From NCBI GenBank assembly GCA_963789955.1, contig CAWBMV010000001.1, positions 1 to 64,000 of the forward strand: a DNA stretch of 64,000 bases. Direction: 5' to 3'. The notes under the pieces are model-generated. The model did not search any database and had not been told where the DNA came from. It saw only the letters and a list, made by a program, of their open reading frames with translations. This document shows, one piece after another, positions 47,037 to 58,035 of the stretch. This DNA comes from an uncultured Candidatus Rokubacteria bacterium. GTDB lineage: Bacteria > Methylomirabilota > Methylomirabilia > Rokubacteriales > CSP1-6. The position numbers were made by a program, and so were the translations under genes. Positions within the stretch are counted from its first letter, which is position 1. Each line of letters starts with the position of its first letter.

Positions 47037-48641
47037 TCATTTCTTCACGGCGACGCCGCGGAAGTCCATGTTGAGCTCGGGCAGCGGCGTGAACCGCAGC
47101 ACGCGCGCGCTGAGCGCATAGACCTTGACCTCCTGGTAGAGCGCTACCACCGGCGCCCAGTCGCGTACCTGCCGCTGGAGATCGGCGAGGAGCTTGAGGC
47201 GTTTCTGCGCGTCGACCTCGCGGCGCGTGGCGGCGTAGAGCGCCATCAGCTCCGGCGGGTACGGCGCCCAGTTGATCATCGCGATGGAGGACCAGTCGCG
47301 CAGATAGTCGTCGGCGTCGAGGTTGTTGCCGGTCCGGCAGGCGGCGAACCCGCCGTTGGGCGGCAAGGTGCCCTTGGTCGCGGTCTGGAGCAACGTGGCG
47401 AAGTCGACGGGCTTGATGGTCACCTGCACGCCGACGTCCTTCAGCATCTCGGCCACGGCCGGCGTCATCTCGTCGAAGCTCTGGCCGTAGTGCTTGGCCG
47501 GGAACAGGAGCTGGAGGGTCAGCGGATTCGTGTCGCGAAAGCCGGCCTCGGCGAGGAGCGCCCGGGCGCGCGCCGGATCGTACGGGTAGGGCTCCTGCGC
47601 GGCGTAGCCGTACGAGACCGACGCCACGGGCGAGGCGTTGGCCAGCGCGTAGCCGTTGAAGATCTTCTTGACGATCGCGTCCTTGTTGACCGCCAGGTTC
47701 AGCGCGAGCCGCACGCGCTGATCGGCGAAGAGCCCGTCCTTGCCGTCCGAGTCGTACTTGTCCTTCGGGCGGGCGTTGATGTAGAGCCGGCACGAGAGCT
47801 TCTGCGGGCTCGACACGACCTTGAGCTTCGAGTCCTGCGCGAGGGCCGGGGCGTCGAAGGGCGGCACGCCTTCGATCAGCGCGACTTGACCGGCCCGCAG
47901 GGCGGCGATGCGGGCGGCGCCCTCGGGAATCGTCTGGAAGCGCATCTTCCGGAACAGCGGCGCGGTGCCCCAGTAGGCCTCGTTGCGCTCGAACAGCATC
48001 GACGTCTTGCGCTTCCACTCGACCATCTTCCACGGACCGGTGCCGACCGGACGCTCGTTGAGCCCGTCCACGCCGTTCTTGATCGTGTAGGCCTTCGGTA
48101 CCATGGGCTCACGGCCGATGAAATCCCAGAGCGTCGGCGCCGGCTCGCTGGTGTGGATCCGCACGGTGTAGTCGTTGACTTTCTCCCAGCGCGTGACGAA
48201 CGGGTACGTCTTCTCGAACGACGTGGCGGCGAGGACGTCCTTCAGTCCCCATTTGTCGAAGTTCCGCCGGAAGAACCGATCCAGATTGAACAGCACGGTG
48301 TCGGCGTTGAACGGCTCGCCGTCGTGGAACGTCACGCCGCGCCGGAGCACGAATTCCCAGGTGAGATCGTTCACGGGCTTCCACGAGAGCGCCAGGCCCG
48401 GCACGGGACGGCCCTGCGCGTCGACGTCGACCAGTCCCTCGAACACCTGACGGATGTAGTTGGAGCGAATCGAGCCCATGCCGATGCGAGGATCCATGTT
48501 GGTGGTGTCGTCGGCGAGCGCGACGACCAGCTCGGCATCCGGGTCGATCGCGACGCCGTCCACCGTGCGCGGCTGCGCGGCGACCGCCTGCGGTCCGAGC
48601 AGCGCCAGCGCGACGAGCAACGGCCCTGTCCAGCGAATCAT
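47037..48641 (-). CDS. peptide/nickel ABC transporter substrate-binding protein (family 5)
   Basis: Signal peptide; LRRGVTFHDGEPF and PVGTGPW motifs. Confidence 0.9.
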   Translation of the reverse strand: MIRWTGPLLVALALLGPQAVAAQPRTVDGVAIDPDAELVVALADDTTNMDPRIGMGSIRSNYIRQVFEGLVDVDAQGRPVPGLALSWKPVNDLTWEFVLRRGVTFHDGEPFNADTVLFNLDRFFRRNFDKWGLKDVLAATSFEKTYPFVTRWEKVNDYTVRIHTSEPAPTLWDFIGREPMVPKAYTIKNGVDGLNERPVGTGPWKMVEWKRKTSMLFERNEAYWGTAPLFRKMRFQTIPEGAARIAALRAGQVALIEGVPPFDAPALAQDSKLKVVSSPQKLSCRLYINARPKDKYDSDGKDGLFADQRVRLALNLAVNKDAIVKKIFNGYALANASPVASVSYGYAAQEPYPYDPARARALLAEAGFRDTNPLTLQLLFPAKHYGQSFDEMTPAVAEMLKDVGVQVTIKPVDFATLLQTATKGTLPPNGGFAACRTGNNLDADDYLRDWSSIAMINWAPYPPELMALYAATRREVDAQKRLKLLADLQRQVRDWAPVVALYQEVKVYALSARVLRFTPLPELNMDFRGVAVKK

Positions 48642-48697
48642 CTCTTCGGCTCCTCTCGTGGGATGGCCCCCAACTAGATATCAGCGCTCTGGTCTTG

Positions 48698-49866
48698 TCA
48701 ACGCCGTGCGCGCTGATCGACGAGTCGGAACACCCCGAAGCCGACGATCGTCGACGCCATGACGAGCGCGGCGAAGACGATCGGCGCGGCGGGCTGCCGA
48801 AGACGTCGCGCACGGCGCCGGCCGCGAGCTGCACGACGGCCATCACGACGTAGTACGTCGTGTAGTACACGCCGAGCGTCGTGGCCAGCCGCTCGCTCGC
48901 CACGGCCTTCGGCAAGAGCGCCATCAAGGCGCCGGGCGGCGCGCCGATCGCGAGGCCGACCAGGCAGAAGGCGAGCATCGGGTGGGTGAGCGCGGGCAGC
49001 AGCAGGATGAAGAAGGCGGCGACCAGGCTCCCTGCGACGATCAGGAGATTGGGCCGACCGAGACGGTCGGTGAGAAGCCCGCCGATCGGCACCGAGACGA
49101 TGGTGAGCCAGATCGCGAGGCTCACGACGAAGCCGGCGTCGGACAGCGACACGCCGCGGGCGATCAGCAGGCCGGGGCCGAACGCGATGATGGCCACGAG
49201 GCTCGCGTTGAAGCAGCCCCAGGCGAAGCCGCCGCTGGTCGCGAGCCCGATCTCGCGGCCCGAGAGTCGCACCCGTCGCTCGGCGGCCTTCGCCGCGTGG
49301 TCCGCGGCGCGGGGGGCATCGCGGTAGACGAACGCGATCAGCACGAGCCCGAGCGCCGCGACGAGCGCCGTCGCCACGATCGCCACCCGCCACGACGCAT
49401 GGGTGGCGAGCGCGCCGAGCGTGGCGGTCGCGATCCCGAGGCCGACCGGCCAGCTGGTCAGCATGATGCCCATCGCCGTCGACAGCTCGCGACCCGTGAA
49501 CCAGTCGGCGACCATCTTGGCGAGCAGGATGTTCATGAGCACGGCGCCGGCGCCGCTCACGAGCCGGCCCGCGGCCGCGACGACGAAGCCGTGGGCGGCG
49601 GCGGTGACGAAGCCGCCGGCGACCATCAGCGCGAGGCTCGCCACGACGATGCGCCGGTCGCCGAAGCGCTGGCCGAGCACGCCCCCGGGCAGTGCGAACA
49701 CGGCGCCGGGCAGCATGTAGAGGCCGATCAGCGAGCCGAGCTGCACCCAGGTGAGCTGGAGCTCCGCGACCATCAGCGGCGCCACGGCCGCGACGGCCTG
49801 GAATTGAAAGCCCATCGACGTGCGGGTGACGAACACGATGACCAGCGCCACCCAGCGATTCGCCAT
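48698..49866 (-). CDS. MFS transporter (frameshift near 48790)
   Basis: About 12 hydrophobic segments; G.LGQRFG.R and GLLTDRLGR motif A. Confidence 0.88.
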
Positions 49867-49967
49867 GTGGCCGGGATCATAAACGGAGGCGGACCGCCCG
49901 GGCTTGATCAATTGCGGCCGCCGACATAGAGTCCGGCCCAGAGATGATCGCGCATGAGGGGGAAAAG

Positions 49968-51628
49968 ATGGCTGCACCCGTAGCCCCGACCGATATCAGC
50001 CGCCGAGATCTGCTCAAGCTCGGCGGCGCCGCCGTCGCCGCCGGCACCGTGCTCCCGCTCCTCGGTCGCGAGGCCGCCGACGCCCAGACACCGAAGCGGG
50101 GCGGAGTGTTCCGGATCCGCGGCGAGGACGCCACCACCGGGTTCGATCCGCACCTGTTCTCGAACCATCACCGGATCTCGACGAATCTGTCGTTCACCCA
50201 CAGCCGTCTGGTGAAGGTGAAGGCGGGCCCGTCCATCGTGCCGGGCACCCTGCCGGTCGAGCCCGACCTGGCCGAGTCGTGGACGCAGCCCAACGACCGG
50301 ACCTACGTCTTCAAGCTCAGAAAAGGCGTGCGCTGGCACAACAAGCCGCCGGTGAACGGCCGCGAGCTGACCGCGGAAGACGTCAAGTACACCTACGAGC
50401 GTTTCCTGTCGATCAAGGGCAATCCGAACCGCTCGACCCTGGGCGCCGTCGAGAAGATCGACACGCCCGACAAGTACACGGTTCGCTTCATGCTCAACGA
50501 GCCGTTCGGCTGGTTCCTCGACTATCTGGCGAACACCGTGATGTGGATCGTGCCGCGGGAGGCGGTGGAGCAGTACGGTGATCTCAAGCGGGCCGAGGCG
50601 TGCATCGGGACCGGGCCCTGGATGCTCGAGCGCTACGAGCCGAACGTCCGGCTCACCTTCGTCCGGAATCCGAACTACTTTCTGCCTGGGCTCCCGTACG
50701 CGGACGGCATCGAGGTCACCGTCGACGAGGATCCATCGTCGCGGCTCGCCGCCTGGATCGCCGGCAAGTACGACTTCGCCCCCGAGTACGGACAGTGCGT
50801 TCGGCGGCTCGACCTCGACGTGGCCAAGGGCCGCAAACCCAATCTCAAGACTCAGGATTTCACCGTGCTCTTCAGCGGCATCACGATGATGAAGCTCGAT
50901 CGCGAGCCGTTCAAGGACGTCCGGGTGCGCCGCGCGCTGGCGCAGTCGATGAACTGGAAGGACGTGCTCGAGACGAATGCGTGGTCCCAGGGCCACGGCG
51001 TCCCCAATCCGGCGGTGCCCGCCGCGTTGAAGGAATGGTCGATTCCGATCAATCAACTCACCCCGGAGGGGCGTCGGCTCTACGAGCAAAACATTCCGGA
51101 GGCCAAGCGGCTGCTCGCGCAGGCGGGCTTTCCCGCCGGACTCAAGGTCCCGGTCGAGGCGACGCTCGGGTGGAGCCCGGACTACGTCGACCAACTTGCA
51201 GGTCGTCATGCGCAACTGGAAGGACGCCGGGATCGACACTGAGCTGCGCGGCAAGGAATTCGGCGCCTTCATGTCGAGCGTGATCTACGGGAAGTTCGAG
51301 AAGCTCGCCCACAGCCTGCGCGGCGGCAGCCCGATCGCGGACATCTACCCTCTACGGCGGCCACGTCCCGGGCGAGGCGTTGAACTCCTCGGGCGTCGAC
51401 GATCCCAAGCTGACCGAGATGATCAAGCTGCAGCGCCGTACGCTCGACGTCGCCAAGCGTCGCGAGATCGTCTTCGACATCCAGCGCTATCTGGCGGAGC
51501 AGGTGTACTACGCCTACGACCCGTCGACGACCACGGTGGCGGCCTGGGAGCCGTACGTGAAGAACTTCGCTCCGAACCTCGGCCACGACTACGGCGGCCG
51601 GCTCATGGCCGCGTGGCTCGACCGCTGA
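49968..51628 (+). CDS. family 5 ABC substrate-binding protein with Tat signal (frameshifts near 51198 and 51348)
   Basis: SRRDLLK; PDLAESW, LRKGVRWH and IGTGPW motifs; ends ..WLDR*. Confidence 0.88.
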
Positions 51629-53162: not shown

Positions 53163-53905
53163 TCGACACCGTCAGGAAGTGGATCGACGAGGCGGAGTGC
53201 CTCGTGGCGCTCACGGGTGCCGGGATCTCGACAGATTCCGGCATCCCTGACTTCCGAGGGCCCCAGGGGGTCTGGACGAAGAACCCCGAGGCCGAGAAGC
53301 AGTCCACCCTGCAGAACTACGTCGCGGATCCCGACGTGCGTAAGCGCGCGTGGCAGAGCCGGCTCACCTCGCCGGCCTGGAAGGCCGAGCCCAACGACGG
53401 CCACCGCGCCTTCGTCACGCTCGAGAAGCGCGGCAAGCTCGACACCCTGATCACCCAGAACATCGACGGCCTGCACGTCAAGGCGGGCTTGTCCCCCGCC
53501 CGCGTCATCGAGATCCACGGCACGATGCACGAGGTGGTGTGCCTGGCTTGCGGCGAGCGGGCGGCGATGGAGCGGGCGCTCGCCCGCGTGCGCGCCGGCG
53601 AGGACGACCCGCCGTGCCGGACGTGCGGCGGCATTCTCAAGTCGGCGACGATCTCGTTCGGCCAGGGGCTCGTACAGGATGACCTCGTGCGCGCCCAGCA
53701 CGCCGCCGCGAGCTGCGACCTGATGCTGGCGGTCGGCACGAAGCTGTCGGTCTATCCCATCGCCGGCGTCGTGCCGGTCGCCAAGCGCGCCGGCGCGCGT
53801 GTCGTGATCCTCAACGCAGAGCCGACCGAAATGGACGAGCTGGCCGACGCCGTGCTTCGTGGCTCGATCTCGAGCCTCCTGCCTCGTCTGGTGGAGAGCG
53901 CCTGA
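53159..53905 (+). CDS. cobB: NAD-dependent deacylase (sirtuin, CobB-like)
   Basis: TGAGISTDSGIPDFRG, TQNIDGLH, HG and two CxxC motifs; probable CTG start after AAGGAG. Confidence 0.88.
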   Translation: MIDTVRKWIDEAECLVALTGAGISTDSGIPDFRGPQGVWTKNPEAEKQSTLQNYVADPDVRKRAWQSRLTSPAWKAEPNDGHRAFVTLEKRGKLDTLITQNIDGLHVKAGLSPARVIEIHGTMHEVVCLACGERAAMERALARVRAGEDDPPCRTCGGILKSATISFGQGLVQDDLVRAQHAAASCDLMLAVGTKLSVYPIAGVVPVAKRAGARVVILNAEPTEMDELADAVLRGSISSLLPRLVESA

Positions 53906-55845
53906 TGCCCGTGACCCGGTTCGACGTGAGACTTCGGCGTCCGCTGGCCGGCGGTGTGTCGTTCGGCGACGTCGGCCCCTACGAGGAGCTGAAAGGCACG
54001 CTTCGGTTCGCGATCGATCCCAAGAACGCCGCGAACGAGCGCATCACCGACGCCGCGCTGGCCCCGCGCGACCACGCGGGCCGCGTCGAGTTCGAGTCCG
54101 ACGTGTCGATCCTGCTGCCGGTCGACCCGCGGCGCTGCAGCGGTCGCGTCATGCTCGACGTGGTGAACCGGGGCAACACGGTCGCGGTCCCGAACTTCAA
54201 CCGCGCGACTCGTCCGACGTTCGTTCCGGGCGCCGATGCGGATCCTCCGGTCGATCCGGGCGACGGCTTCTTGATGCGACGTGGCTTCGTGGTGATCTCG
54301 TGCGGCTGGCAGATCGATCTGCCCGAGGTGCCCGGGCTTCTCGGCCTGCGCGGACCCGAAGCGCTCGACCCGAGCGGCAATCGCATCACCGGCCGCGTCT
54401 ACACCCAGCTCCAGACGCCGGCGCCGGCCACGCACCTCCTGCTCTCGGATCGCGGCCACCGCGCCTATCCGGCCGCCGATCTCGACGAGCGCGGCGCGGT
54501 GCTGCAGGTCCGCGACCAGCCCGACGGCGACGCGACCACGATCGAGCGCGGCCGCTGGCGCTTCGCCCGCGTCGCCGGCGGCGCGGTCGTGCCCGACGCG
54601 CGCTACGTCTGGCTCGAGGGCGGGTTCGAGAAGGGCCGCCTGTACCAGGTGGCCTATACGGCGGTCGGCGCGCCGGTCGTGGGGCTCGGCATCGCCGCGC
54701 TTCGCGACAGCGCCGCCTGGCTCAAGCATGGGACGGCGCACGAAGGAAACCCCGCGCCGGGCGTTCTGCGGTACGTGTACGCGTATGGCCGCTCGCAGAC
54801 CGGACGTCTGCTGCGCACGCTCGTCTACAACGATCTGAATCTCGACGAGCACGGCCGCGAAGCGCTCGACGGGATCATCGCGAACGTCGCCGGCGGTCTC
54901 CGCGGCGAGTTCAACCAGCGGTTCGGCCAGAACTCGAAGGACCGGCCGCACATGATGGACTACGTCCAGCCCGCCACCGACCAGGACCTGCACCGGCGGC
55001 TCGCGGCGCGCGCCAGCACCTTGAAGGTCTTCTACACGAACAGCTCGGCCGAATACCATCGCGGCGACGCCTCGCTCGCTCATACGAACGCCGAGGGGAC
55101 GCGCGATGTCCCGTCCGGTCCGTCGGCGCGCGTCTACCACTTTGCCGGGACCGAGCACGGTCTCGGCGTCTGGCCCCCGACGTCCGAGAAGATCGCCGCG
55201 GCCGATCCGTCCGAGCCGTCGGAGAACTCGCAGAACTTGAGAAATACGATCGACTACGCGCCGCTCCTGCGCGCGTGTCTCGTCAACATGGACCGCTGGG
55301 TCACCGAGGGGGTCGAGCCGCCGCCGAGCCGTCATCCGCGTCTCGCCGACGGGACCGCGGTGCCGTTCGAGGCGCTCCACGCGGTGTTCGATCGCATCCC
55401 CGGCGCCCACTATCCGCGCCACCACGCGCGACCGTGCCGGCTCGACTTCTCCGCGCTCCCGCCGCGGCCCGGCCCGGCGTGCGGCTCGCTCGTCTCGGCC
55501 GTCGACGCCGACGGCAACGAGACCGGCGGCATCGCGCTGCCGGAGGTCGCGGTGCCGCTCGGCGCCCACACCGGATGGACGCTCAGGCACGCGTCGATCG
55601 GCGGCGAGGCCCAGCGCCTGGTCTTCGCCGGCGCGACCATTCCGTTCGCCCGCACCCGTCGCGAGCGCGAAGCGAGCGGCGACCCGCGCCCGTCCATCGA
55701 GGAGCGCTATCGCTCGCGCGACGACTATCTCGAGCGCGTCCGCCGCGCCGGCCAGGCCCTCGTCGCGCAGCGCTTCATGCTCGACGAGGACGTCGAGCTG
55801 GCCGTCGGGCTCGCGGCGCGCGCGTGGGATCACTGGACCGCCTGA
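53905..55845 (+). CDS. alpha/beta-hydrolase-domain protein (tannase/3HB-oligomer-hydrolase-like, uncharacterised)
   Basis: G.SQTGR nucleophile motif, GTEH His, VDADGNE.GG and DPRPSIEERY motifs. Confidence 0.75.
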   Translation: MPVTRFDVRLRRPLAGGVSFGDVGPYEELKGTLRFAIDPKNAANERITDAALAPRDHAGRVEFESDVSILLPVDPRRCSGRVMLDVVNRGNTVAVPNFNRATRPTFVPGADADPPVDPGDGFLMRRGFVVISCGWQIDLPEVPGLLGLRGPEALDPSGNRITGRVYTQLQTPAPATHLLLSDRGHRAYPAADLDERGAVLQVRDQPDGDATTIERGRWRFARVAGGAVVPDARYVWLEGGFEKGRLYQVAYTAVGAPVVGLGIAALRDSAAWLKHGTAHEGNPAPGVLRYVYAYGRSQTGRLLRTLVYNDLNLDEHGREALDGIIANVAGGLRGEFNQRFGQNSKDRPHMMDYVQPATDQDLHRRLAARASTLKVFYTNSSAEYHRGDASLAHTNAEGTRDVPSGPSARVYHFAGTEHGLGVWPPTSEKIAAADPSEPSENSQNLRNTIDYAPLLRACLVNMDRWVTEGVEPPPSRHPRLADGTAVPFEALHAVFDRIPGAHYPRHHARPCRLDFSALPPRPGPACGSLVSAVDADGNETGGIALPEVAVPLGAHTGWTLRHASIGGEAQRLVFAGATIPFARTRREREASGDPRPSIEERYRSRDDYLERVRRAGQALVAQRFMLDEDVELAVGLAARAWDHWTA

Positions 55846-55899
55846 GCCGACGAGTCTGACCGGACGCCTCCGCGGCGTCCCTCCCTGCGGAGGAGCGAC

Positions 55900-56499
55900 A
55901 TGTCGTTCATCAACGAGATTCCGCTCGAGCAAGCCACCGGCGCCGTGCGAGACGCGTACGAGAGCGATCTGAAGGCGCTCGGCTACATCGCGAATTACAC
56001 GAAGGTGTTCGCGCTTCGGCCCCAGGTCCGGGCCGCCTGGGGCAATCTGATCCAGGCCATCCGGTCGACGATGGACCAGCGGCGGTACGAGCTGATCACG
56101 CTCGCGGCCGCCTCGCAGCTCCGGTGTAGCTACTGAATGCTCGCGCACGGAGCCGTGCTGCTCCGCAGCGGGATCTTCACGAACGAGCAGGTGAACGCGA
56201 TCGCCCGCGACTACCGTCAGGCCGGGCTCCCACCGGCCGAGGTCGCGATGATGGCGTTCGCGGAGCAGGTCACGGCCCGTGCGAACACCGTGACCCGCGA
56301 GGACGTCGAAGGACTGCGCGGCCACGGATTCTCCGACACCGAGATCCTGGACATCGCGCTGACCGCCGCCGCGCGCTGCTTCTTCAGCAAGGTGCTCGAC
56401 GGCGTCGGTGCGGCCCCCGACGACGCCTACATGGCTCTCGACGAGCGCGTGCGTCAGACCCTGGCGAAGGGCCGTCCGTTCACCGGCAGCGCCACCTGA
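55900..56499 (+). CDS. AhpD/carboxymuconolactone decarboxylase-like peroxidase with in-frame TGA (probable selenocysteine, CSYU)
   Basis: ORFs 55900-56136 and 56137-56499 are contiguous in one frame; TGA 56134-56136 falls in ELITLAAASQLRCSY*MLAHG, the E..C..C..H motif. Confidence 0.85.
56143..56161 (+). promoter_or_regulatory. candidate bacterial SECIS hairpin
   Basis: GC-GCACG-GAGC-CGTGC-(U bulge)-GC just 3' of the in-frame TGA; the loop starts with G. Confidence 0.5.
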
Positions 56500-56530: not shown

Positions 56531-56941
56531 ATGACGGTGACCCGCAAGAACATCCAGCCGGACGCGCTCGCGGCGCCGGTCCGAAACGGCCACACCTTGT
56601 ACTCCCACGTCGTCGCGGTCGAGGGCCGGCGCCTCGTCTTCGTCGCCGGCCAGCTCGCGCGAGACCGGGCCGGTAACGTCGTGGGCAAAGGCGACATGCG
56701 CGCCCAGATTCGTCAGGTCGGCGAGAACATCAAGGCGGCGCTGACGACCGCGGGCGCGACGCTCGGCGACATCGTGAAGACCAATACCTACGTGACCGAT
56801 ATGGACGAGTACTTCAAGCACGTCGATGTCCGCATGGAGTATTTCGGGCCGGCGCTTCCGACCAGCACCACCGTCGAGGTGCGACGGCTGGCCCATCCCG
56901 ACTTTCTGGTCGAAGTCGAGGTGGTCGCGATGCTCGGCTAG
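56531..56941 (+). CDS. RidA/YjgF/UK114 family protein
   Basis: YSHVV, VFVAGQ, PTSTTVEV..L and LVEVE motifs. Confidence 0.9.
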   Translation: MTVTRKNIQPDALAAPVRNGHTLYSHVVAVEGRRLVFVAGQLARDRAGNVVGKGDMRAQIRQVGENIKAALTTAGATLGDIVKTNTYVTDMDEYFKHVDVRMEYFGPALPTSTTVEVRRLAHPDFLVEVEVVAMLG

Positions 56942-57592: not shown

Positions 57593-57620
57593 GCCAGGCC
57601 TCCTGGGCGGATACCCTACT

Positions 57621-58035
57621 TCATTGGCCTGGGGGCCGCTGCCGATTCACCAGGGTGGCGACGACGTGAACGATGTCCGTCGGGTCGATTGGCTTTCGCA
57701 GGAACACGTTGAACCCCGCAGCGCGCGCCTCGCGCACCCCGAAGCGTTCCGAGAAGAACGTCACGGCAATCGCCGGGACGTCGTGACCCCGTCGCGCGCG
57801 CTCGCACCCATCGGATGAACTCGAGCCCGTTCTCGCCGGGCAACCCGAGGTCGCACACGATGATGTCGACGTCCGTGGCGCCCAGGAGTTCGCGGGCCTC
57901 CGGGGCGGAACCGGCGGCGAGCACGAGAGCGCCGAAGGGCTCGAGGGCGGCGATGAGAAGCTGTACCGAATCGTGGTGGTCGTCGACCACCAGGGCGGTG
58001 ATTCCGGAGAGAGCTGGTCGCTCCACGGCGCTCAT
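57621..58035 (-). CDS. single-domain response regulator (frameshift near 57785)
   Basis: LVVDD, CDLGLPGENG, then VPAIAVT..GF..FLRKP in the shifted frame. Confidence 0.8.

Follow-up and report, generated by a model that had tools for sequence, protein, structure and literature searches.

The locus studied here raises the question whether two open reading frames that abut in the same frame, with only a TGA between them, are two genes or a single gene whose internal TGA is read as selenocysteine (Sec). The locus lies in a stretch of 64,000 nucleotides of DNA, which is called the window in the following; the genome it belongs to is G000. To judge by the names attached to homologues and by their grouping with proteins of one genus, the host is probably one of the Rokubacteria (Methylomirabilota). 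An earlier note on this DNA had described both reading frames and a read-through product of 199 aa, and ORF calling and translation confirm this. The upstream half-ORF (55900-56136, 78 aa) terminates in the TGA at 56134-56136, and a 120-aa ORF in the same frame opens at the ATG at 56137, directly after the TGA, and runs to 56499. The codons at 56125-56148 are TGT AGC TAC TGA ATG CTC GCG CAC. With TGA translated as U the protein comprises 199 aa and contains the segment ELITLAAASQLRCSYUMLAHG. The features of the gene are:

55900..56499, plus strand: predicted selenoprotein gene, AhpD-like (TIGR01926 / PF02627), 199 aa; from translation, profile matches and homologues
55889..55895, plus strand: Shine-Dalgarno-like purine-rich stretch GGAGGAG before the start codon; read from the sequence, with a presumed function
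56134..56136, plus strand: in-frame TGA, predicted Sec79, at the second Cys position of the AhpD CxxC; from aligned loci

The assignment to the CMD/AhpD proteins, also made in the earlier note, holds: with U scored as C, the read-through protein passes the TIGR01926 profile (92.2 bits vs a cut-off of 81.8) as well as TIGR00778 and PF02627. Full-length Cys homologues in the databases have 193-203 aa and up to 72% identity, and the best relatives of solved structure are peroxidase-related AhpD-core proteins (E 2e-16). As had been anticipated, standard gene callers split the gene. Databases carry it as fragments of 78 aa and 120 aa, an annotation that is corrected here; 120-aa C-terminal halves at 95-98% identity are present among the entries, and 54 out of 92 short database matches stop one residue before codon 79, as judged from protein ends, where stop codons themselves are not visible.

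We consider it very likely that the UGA at codon 79 is decoded as Sec, because the TGA is kept in close relatives, falls on a redox-Cys position and occurs in a genome with the full Sec machinery. The wider reading, according to which 55900-56499 is one gene for an AhpD-like redox protein with the motif Cys-Ser-Tyr-Sec, has a very high probability on the basis of the sequence comparisons.

Codon 79 and the predicted SECIS element

Codon 79 was compared in 60 relatives, 251 genomes of the phylum, named genomes and metagenomes, which provided 107 loci at ≥42% identity; four loci with column 79 unaligned were left out of the codon count. TGA occurs in 31 out of 31 loci with ≥70% identity (the window, one duplicate, 4 genomes and 25 metagenome contigs). 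Of these, 29 are independent of the window and its duplicate and reach down to 72% identity, and the close TGA loci contain no other internal stop. At 42-69% identity (n = 76, duplicates kept in) the codon is TGC or TGT in 73 loci and TGA in 3. This comparison, which the earlier note had proposed, supports its claim that the UGA is recoded as Sec and that the product is an AhpD-like protein of the CxxU type, as do the Sec machinery and the SECIS element treated below. Contigs of the runs X1, X2 and X16 span 56134-56136, and no difference is found there among those listed; X7 leaves the site uncovered. Coverage by contigs assembled from RNA libraries is no sign of transcription. A sample of 401 genomes of another phylum yielded just 3 matches, spread over 2 genomes and free of stops, too few to bear on Sec in that phylum. 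In 25 near-complete TGA orthologues the amino-acid constraint is similar on either side of the TGA, with a mean pairwise difference of 0.15 upstream and 0.20 downstream.

Downstream of the TGA a stem-loop is predicted:

56148..56165, plus strand: SECIS upper stem-loop, CGGAGC-CGUGCU-GCUCCG; from folding and orthologue comparison
56140..56172, plus strand: complete SECIS, to which a weaker lower stem (56140-56144/56168-56172) belongs; from folding

The upper stem of 6 bp begins at +12 and its 6-nt loop at +18 (17 nt after the UGA); the second loop base is G and the third is U (G in one contig). The upper hairpin has an energy of -10.1 kcal/mol and the full element an MFE of -18.2 kcal/mol; the lower stem is paired in 90% of the cells of the orthologue alignment. 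The published bacterial SECIS model describes a loop of 3-9 nt, a stem of 4-16 bp and a G at loop position 1-2 (PMC13188914), and further a distance of 16-37 nt from the UGA and an MFE of at most -7.5 (PMC13188914, Fig. 2 legend). The hairpin 56148-56165 agrees with this model in all four constraints; the optional N1-N2 pair within the loop is missing. The SECIS supported by these comparisons is thus the predicted stem-loop at 56148-56165, of the canonical bacterial type. The earlier note had placed the loop ~14 nt after the UGA and suggested a lineage-specific SECIS geometry. Neither is upheld, because the supported stem-loop, with its loop at +18, conforms to the published model.

In 12 out of 12 distinct TGA sequences the stem 56148-56153/56160-56165 is intact, with pair probabilities of 0.95-1.00. 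One pair (56148 with 56165) is changed on both sides, from C-G to U-A, in 3 of the 12, and two single-sided changes in the stem retain G-U. The covariation is weak, its score being reached by 37 out of 500 shuffles, and the folding z-scores are modest (-1.37 for 44 nt, -2.2 for 22 nt). A strict hairpin rule, which was drawn up after the hairpin of the window had been seen and looks for stems that begin between +11 and +14, is passed by 15 out of 15 distinct TGA sequences and by 0 out of 63 Cys sequences; 39 out of 2693 long TGA-terminated ORFs of G000 pass it as well, and the hairpin of selD is missed by it.

The strict rule is stronger evidence than covariation and folding z-scores, and so are two tests on the codons themselves. 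Synonymous divergence is 0.10 at codons 80-91 vs 0.25-0.26 elsewhere in the gene, and the 12-codon segments of lowest synonymous divergence are all found in this region. The codon of Gly84 is the rare GGA, which makes up 8% of the Gly codons genome-wide, in 28 out of 29 TGA orthologues vs 2 out of 64 Cys homologues. The SECIS stem opens with the third base of the His83 codon (56148).

Selenocysteine machinery and competing explanations

A genome search for selA, selB, selC and selD, likewise suggested before, found all four over the cut-off (selA 592 bits, selB 359, selD 304, tRNA-Sec 69.8). selC (C1:731972), selA (C1:733430) and selB (C1:734827) are clustered on the contig of the window; selD lies on C6 and itself carries an in-frame TGA (CAG-TGA). 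Relative to the TGA-bearing relative G001, selD is frameshifted once near residue 58, probably by an assembly indel. At ~1350-1510 of locus L006 (G000:C6 ~164350-164510) selD starts CAG-U-ASK and has the hairpin CUCCUGGA-GAUC-UCCAGGAG. Among the 58 tRNAs called, the only one with a TCA anticodon is a typical tRNA-Sec with an 8-bp acceptor stem and a long variable arm. A further tRNA-like element that ARAGORN reports at G000:C1:751321-751418, with an anticodon of four bases (atgg), may be a false call.

Across the genomes searched, selA is present in 55 out of 61 (a tally that includes the unpublished G025, which no claim depends on). Five genomes without a selA match were rechecked, and all five retain a TGA-containing selD and TGA-bearing UGSC genes. 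G001 (99% complete, 10% contaminated, 370 contigs) gave no match to selA, selB or selC and retains a TGA selD and 4 TGA UGSC genes; we infer that its selABC locus lies on an unassembled contig.

Several other explanations of the TGA were weighed. If the TGA were an error of sequencing or marked a pseudogene hit by a nonsense mutation, this would have a precedent in at least one frameshift, that in selD relative to G001. The probability of this is practically nil, given the identical TGA at 29 independent loci down to 72% identity, the amino-acid constraint on both halves and a post-TGA region that is the most conserved synonymous stretch of the gene. One might also think of a gene truly split into chains of 78 aa and 120 aa and coupled through TGA-ATG, since ATG directly follows the TGA in 25 out of 31 loci and both halves are listed as proteins in databases. 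In the remaining 6 of the 31 loci, however, the codon after the TGA is ACC or ACG, a contig of run X1 has CTG there, and Met80 is common among Cys homologues as well. A split would moreover remove the second Cys position, conserved in at least 90% of homologues, and would leave the TGA-specific hairpin unexplained; we regard it as extremely improbable. All of these readings fall because the codon is conserved, both halves are constrained and the ATG after the TGA is variable.

UGA-reading Cys tRNAs exist in some bacteria, and the earlier note had allowed for Cys insertion by an opal tRNA. In a genome that is 87% complete a suppressor tRNA for Cys or Trp could be missing from the assembly. No opal Cys tRNA (non-Sec, UCA anticodon) was found among the 58 tRNAs of this 87% complete genome, though, and the sole TCA tRNA is the tRNA-Sec that adjoins selA and selB. 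An altered code is at odds with the 2693 long coding-like ORFs that TGA terminates in G000, and a Cys suppressor does not account for a SECIS that tracks TGA perfectly. Reading of the UGA as Cys or Trp is therefore scarcely less improbable than a split gene. The last alternative retains Sec and has it inserted through a closer hairpin, GCACG/GAGC/CGTGC, as a lineage-specific SECIS type. Its inverted repeat, described in the earlier note, is indeed present at 56145-56158, reaches -9.4 kcal/mol and pairs in 91.7% of the cells. It is not the predicted RNA fold, though, and is mutually exclusive with the stem 56148-56153/56160-56165: the mean pair probability of the GCACG/CGTGC stem is 0.00 in the window and ≤0.03 in the 12 distinct TGA orthologue sequences, in 7 of which it is broken. 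The covariation check proposed for it turned out against it, with no two-sided change and 500 out of 500 shuffles pairing as well, and the most variable positions of the region are the last two loop bases of the supported hairpin, which are paired or bulged in that model. The alternative stem is canonical, and its exact layout (+12, 6 bp, CGUG) recurs in two other TGA candidates of G000. Insertion through the closer hairpin is hence very unlikely, and Sec insertion directed by the stem-loop at 56148-56165 is preferred.

In the screen of G000, 31 out of 1002 TGAs were flanked before and after by a coding-like frame and also had the strict hairpin. From the 30 others besides the window gene, 20 candidates were picked by motif, and 19 of these 20 match selenoprotein or redox families of NCBIfam across their TGA, many of them below the cut-off as truncated pieces. 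The 19 comprise 4 AhpD/CMD, 6 UGSC, 2 PrdB-like, 3 Prx-like and 2 ResA/TlpA-like proteins, 1 protein disulfide oxidoreductase and 1 FdhA. PF02627 matches have the TGA at the Sec79 column in 5 out of 28 cases. The genome thus appears to hold at least 21 selenoprotein genes (the 19 candidates at L176-L194, selD and the window gene), 5 of them AhpD/CMD-like.

Some of the other TGA loci deserve a remark of their own. The AhpD/CMD paralogue L190 (G000:C22:202109, minus strand) is SxxU (GSAYU-MDIR), without the first Cys, and is followed by a canonical hairpin. L176 (G000:C1:631849-632622, plus strand) has two AhpD domains in tandem, of which the first carries CAYU and the second lacks a Cys motif; the SECIS loop of this gene is CGGGAA (6 nt). 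TGA candidates with the strict hairpin also lie at G000:C17:74408, C19:11047, C24:9396 and C37:412162 (e.g. PPTL-U-CVLIV, PIHV-U-GACS); some of these may be unlisted selenoproteins and others chance occurrences. At G027:C11:20285-24644 TGA-containing AhpD-like matches are repeated ~1.3 kb apart, as a tandem array or an assembly repeat.

Predicted active site, proposed mechanism and known systems

The residues of the predicted active site are:

56089..56091, plus strand: Glu64, predicted proton-relay residue (corresponding to M. tuberculosis AhpD Glu118 and PA0269 Glu36); from alignment and spacing
56125..56127, plus strand: Cys76 (TGT), first Cys of the CxxU, predicted resolving thiol; from alignment
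56146..56148, plus strand: His83 of CxxC-xxx-H; from alignment

In 77 aligned sequences E64, Y78 and H83 are invariant and position 79 is Cys in at least 90%. By sequence, E64, C76, Y78, U79 and H83 form the relay Glu-Cys-(His/Tyr)-Cys-His, which consists of E36/C48/Y50/C51/H55 in Pseudomonas aeruginosa PA0269 and of E118/C130/H132/C133/H137 in M. tuberculosis AhpD (PMC3141380), and the spacing is the same in all three. Compared with the latter, Tyr stands for His132 and Sec for Cys133 in the window protein. PA0269 (2O4D; E 0.001) shares Glu...CxYC-xxx-H. The peroxidase-related AhpD-core structures 2PRR, 6K40 (which we take to be DR1765), 3C1L and 2OYO match over residues ~12-180 with E from 2e-16 to 4e-15. 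Unlike these solved relatives and PA0269, the window protein has Sec for the second Cys.

Cys76 is conserved as Cys in all 31 close TGA loci, vs 30 out of 115 full-length Cys homologues, of which 74 carry an SSYC or STYC motif; two N-terminal halves within the Sec clade end in SSY. In M. tuberculosis AhpD the second Cys attacks first. A mechanism can be proposed by analogy. Bacteria are known to bring in Sec-tRNA by means of SelB, which recognises the SECIS (PMC1794560); here SelB with Sec-tRNA would bind the hairpin 56148-56165 and deliver Sec, and the loop GU lies 19-20 nt after the UGA. Sec79 would then be the attacking nucleophile, supported by a Glu64-His83 relay; Cys occupies position 79 in at least 90% of the aligned sequences, and position 76 in no more than 30 out of 115 full-length homologues. 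Cys76 could resolve the oxidised Sec79 to a selenenylsulfide, which a dihydrolipoyl or thioredoxin-type donor might re-reduce. A Lpd-DlaT-AhpD chain is described in M. tuberculosis (PMC12028322), and G000 has two lipoamide dehydrogenase (Lpd) genes over the cut-off; unlike the Lpd-DlaT-AhpD-AhpC chain, the window locus has no ahpC among its scanned neighbours.

The predicted activity of the protein is the reduction of peroxides or of disulfides in partners. A redox role of Sec79 has a high probability; as to peroxide as the physiological substrate, we lean slightly towards it by analogy. PA0269 shows weak H2O2 reduction only (PMC3141380), and a DR1765 mutant is H2O2-sensitive (PMC8945050).

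CxxU AhpD-like selenoproteins had been mentioned before as known from metagenomes, and this is correct. They were reported in 2005 from the Sargasso Sea (COG2128 / TIGR01926, 27 sequences; PMC1088965) and later as ‘AhpD-like 1’ in the GOS data (299 sequences; PMC2398784); a published table lists them under TIGR01926 (PMC13188914), and BSepDB devotes a family page to them (PMC13326102). Cys-to-Sec replacement is described as a general trend, with 2 events in the AhpD-like family (PMC1794560), and a Methylomirabilota MAG with 63 selenoproteins, as well as large Methylomirabilota selenoproteomes, is already in print (PMC13188914). Proteins of this kind, SECIS elements of this type, gains of Sec from Cys in AhpD-like proteins and large selenoproteomes in this phylum are all known already. 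The main text of the deep-Sep paper (PMC12013277) contains no mention of AhpD or of this phylum, and among the papers listed on Rokubacteria selenocysteine and Methylomirabilota selenoproteins no title concerns this gene, which supplements or BSepDB may list.

The window protein resembles the AhpD-like selenoprotein family in its TIGR01926 match, CxxU, in-frame UGA, canonical SECIS and widespread Cys homologues. It differs from the family at large in that its subfamily has mostly SxxC Cys members, and with another AhpD-like selenoprotein encoded in G000 it shares only 22% identity. The equivalogs NF041238 (CFYUT), NF053654 (YciW-related) and NF041047 have the AhpD/CMD fold and CxxU in common with it; membership in them was rejected (scores 34 vs 175, 23 vs 310, or no match).

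Subfamily evolution and neighbouring genes

For a tree of the subfamily, columns 76-90 were removed and the rows thinned at 88% identity (143 out of 216 kept) and then reduced to 50 sequences; TGA forms are under-sampled by the protein databases. All 12 CSYU rows fall into a single clade (98/92), nested in a group of 40 rows (97/93) in which each of the 26 Cys rows is SxxC. SSYU (L155 and L157, from G214 and G212) is the second TGA lineage; its sister at 100/99 is a Cys form, and its SECIS encloses the same CGUG loop with a different stem. The third, CSAU (L167, from G159), sits on a long branch among CxxC forms and has its own SECIS sequence. selB was found in G214, G212 and G159. Sec requires 3 changes in 200 out of 200 bootstrap trees, and a single clade of CSYU and SSYU, a group named after earlier trees had been seen, is rejected (p-AU 6e-5).

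With the tree rooted on Cys forms, the simplest reading of these data suggests three separate Cys-to-Sec gains. The alternative would be a repeated loss of Sec instead of repeated gain. We cautiously favor a scenario in which a mostly single-Cys (SxxC) subfamily acquired Sec at least three times within this bacterial family and built a different SECIS each time from the same post-motif codons, the window lineage changing in addition from SxxC to CxxU and so acquiring a resolving Cys. Two of the three SECISs would have arrived at a CGUG loop at +18, each on a stem of its own. Of the Cys sisters for which DNA is available, the nearest (L020, L084) already form 4-5 of the 6 SECIS stem pairs, which fits a pre-adaptation and a remnant alike. 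If the scenario is true, the Cys sisters, 68-72% identical and some of them in Sec-capable genomes, could represent a natural series for the origin of a selenoprotein and its SECIS and could reveal whether Sec favors a resolving Cys. Such a closely spaced Cys/Sec series would be useful for studying how a SECIS emerges inside coding sequence.

The gene is flanked by:

53905..55845, plus strand: Abhydrolase_10 (PF20091) protein, 646 aa, upstream neighbour; from profile match
56531..56941, plus strand: Rid family (PF01042) protein, 136 aa, downstream neighbour; from profile match

An Abhydrolase_10 gene lies upstream in 5 out of 5 scanned orthologue loci. The downstream Rid gene was confirmed at L017 and L072 and was not seen at L081. 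Among the scanned neighbours of the selenoprotein loci there is no AhpC, lipoyl or other reductant-partner gene, and a neighbourhood of Abhydrolase_10 and usually Rid suggests no redox partner. The Cys sisters L020 and L021 adjoin IMPDH and a different hydrolase and are thus not syntenic with the window gene. A promoter scan at the gene gave no site, and one terminator-like site on the minus strand is at chance level.

Elsewhere in the window several genes look frameshifted (49944-51628, 48109-49977, 57616-58035). A peptide-binding protein runs on in other frames past 51242. Junk tails follow a transporter-like ORF and also a response regulator. The frameshifted genes are consistent with indel errors.
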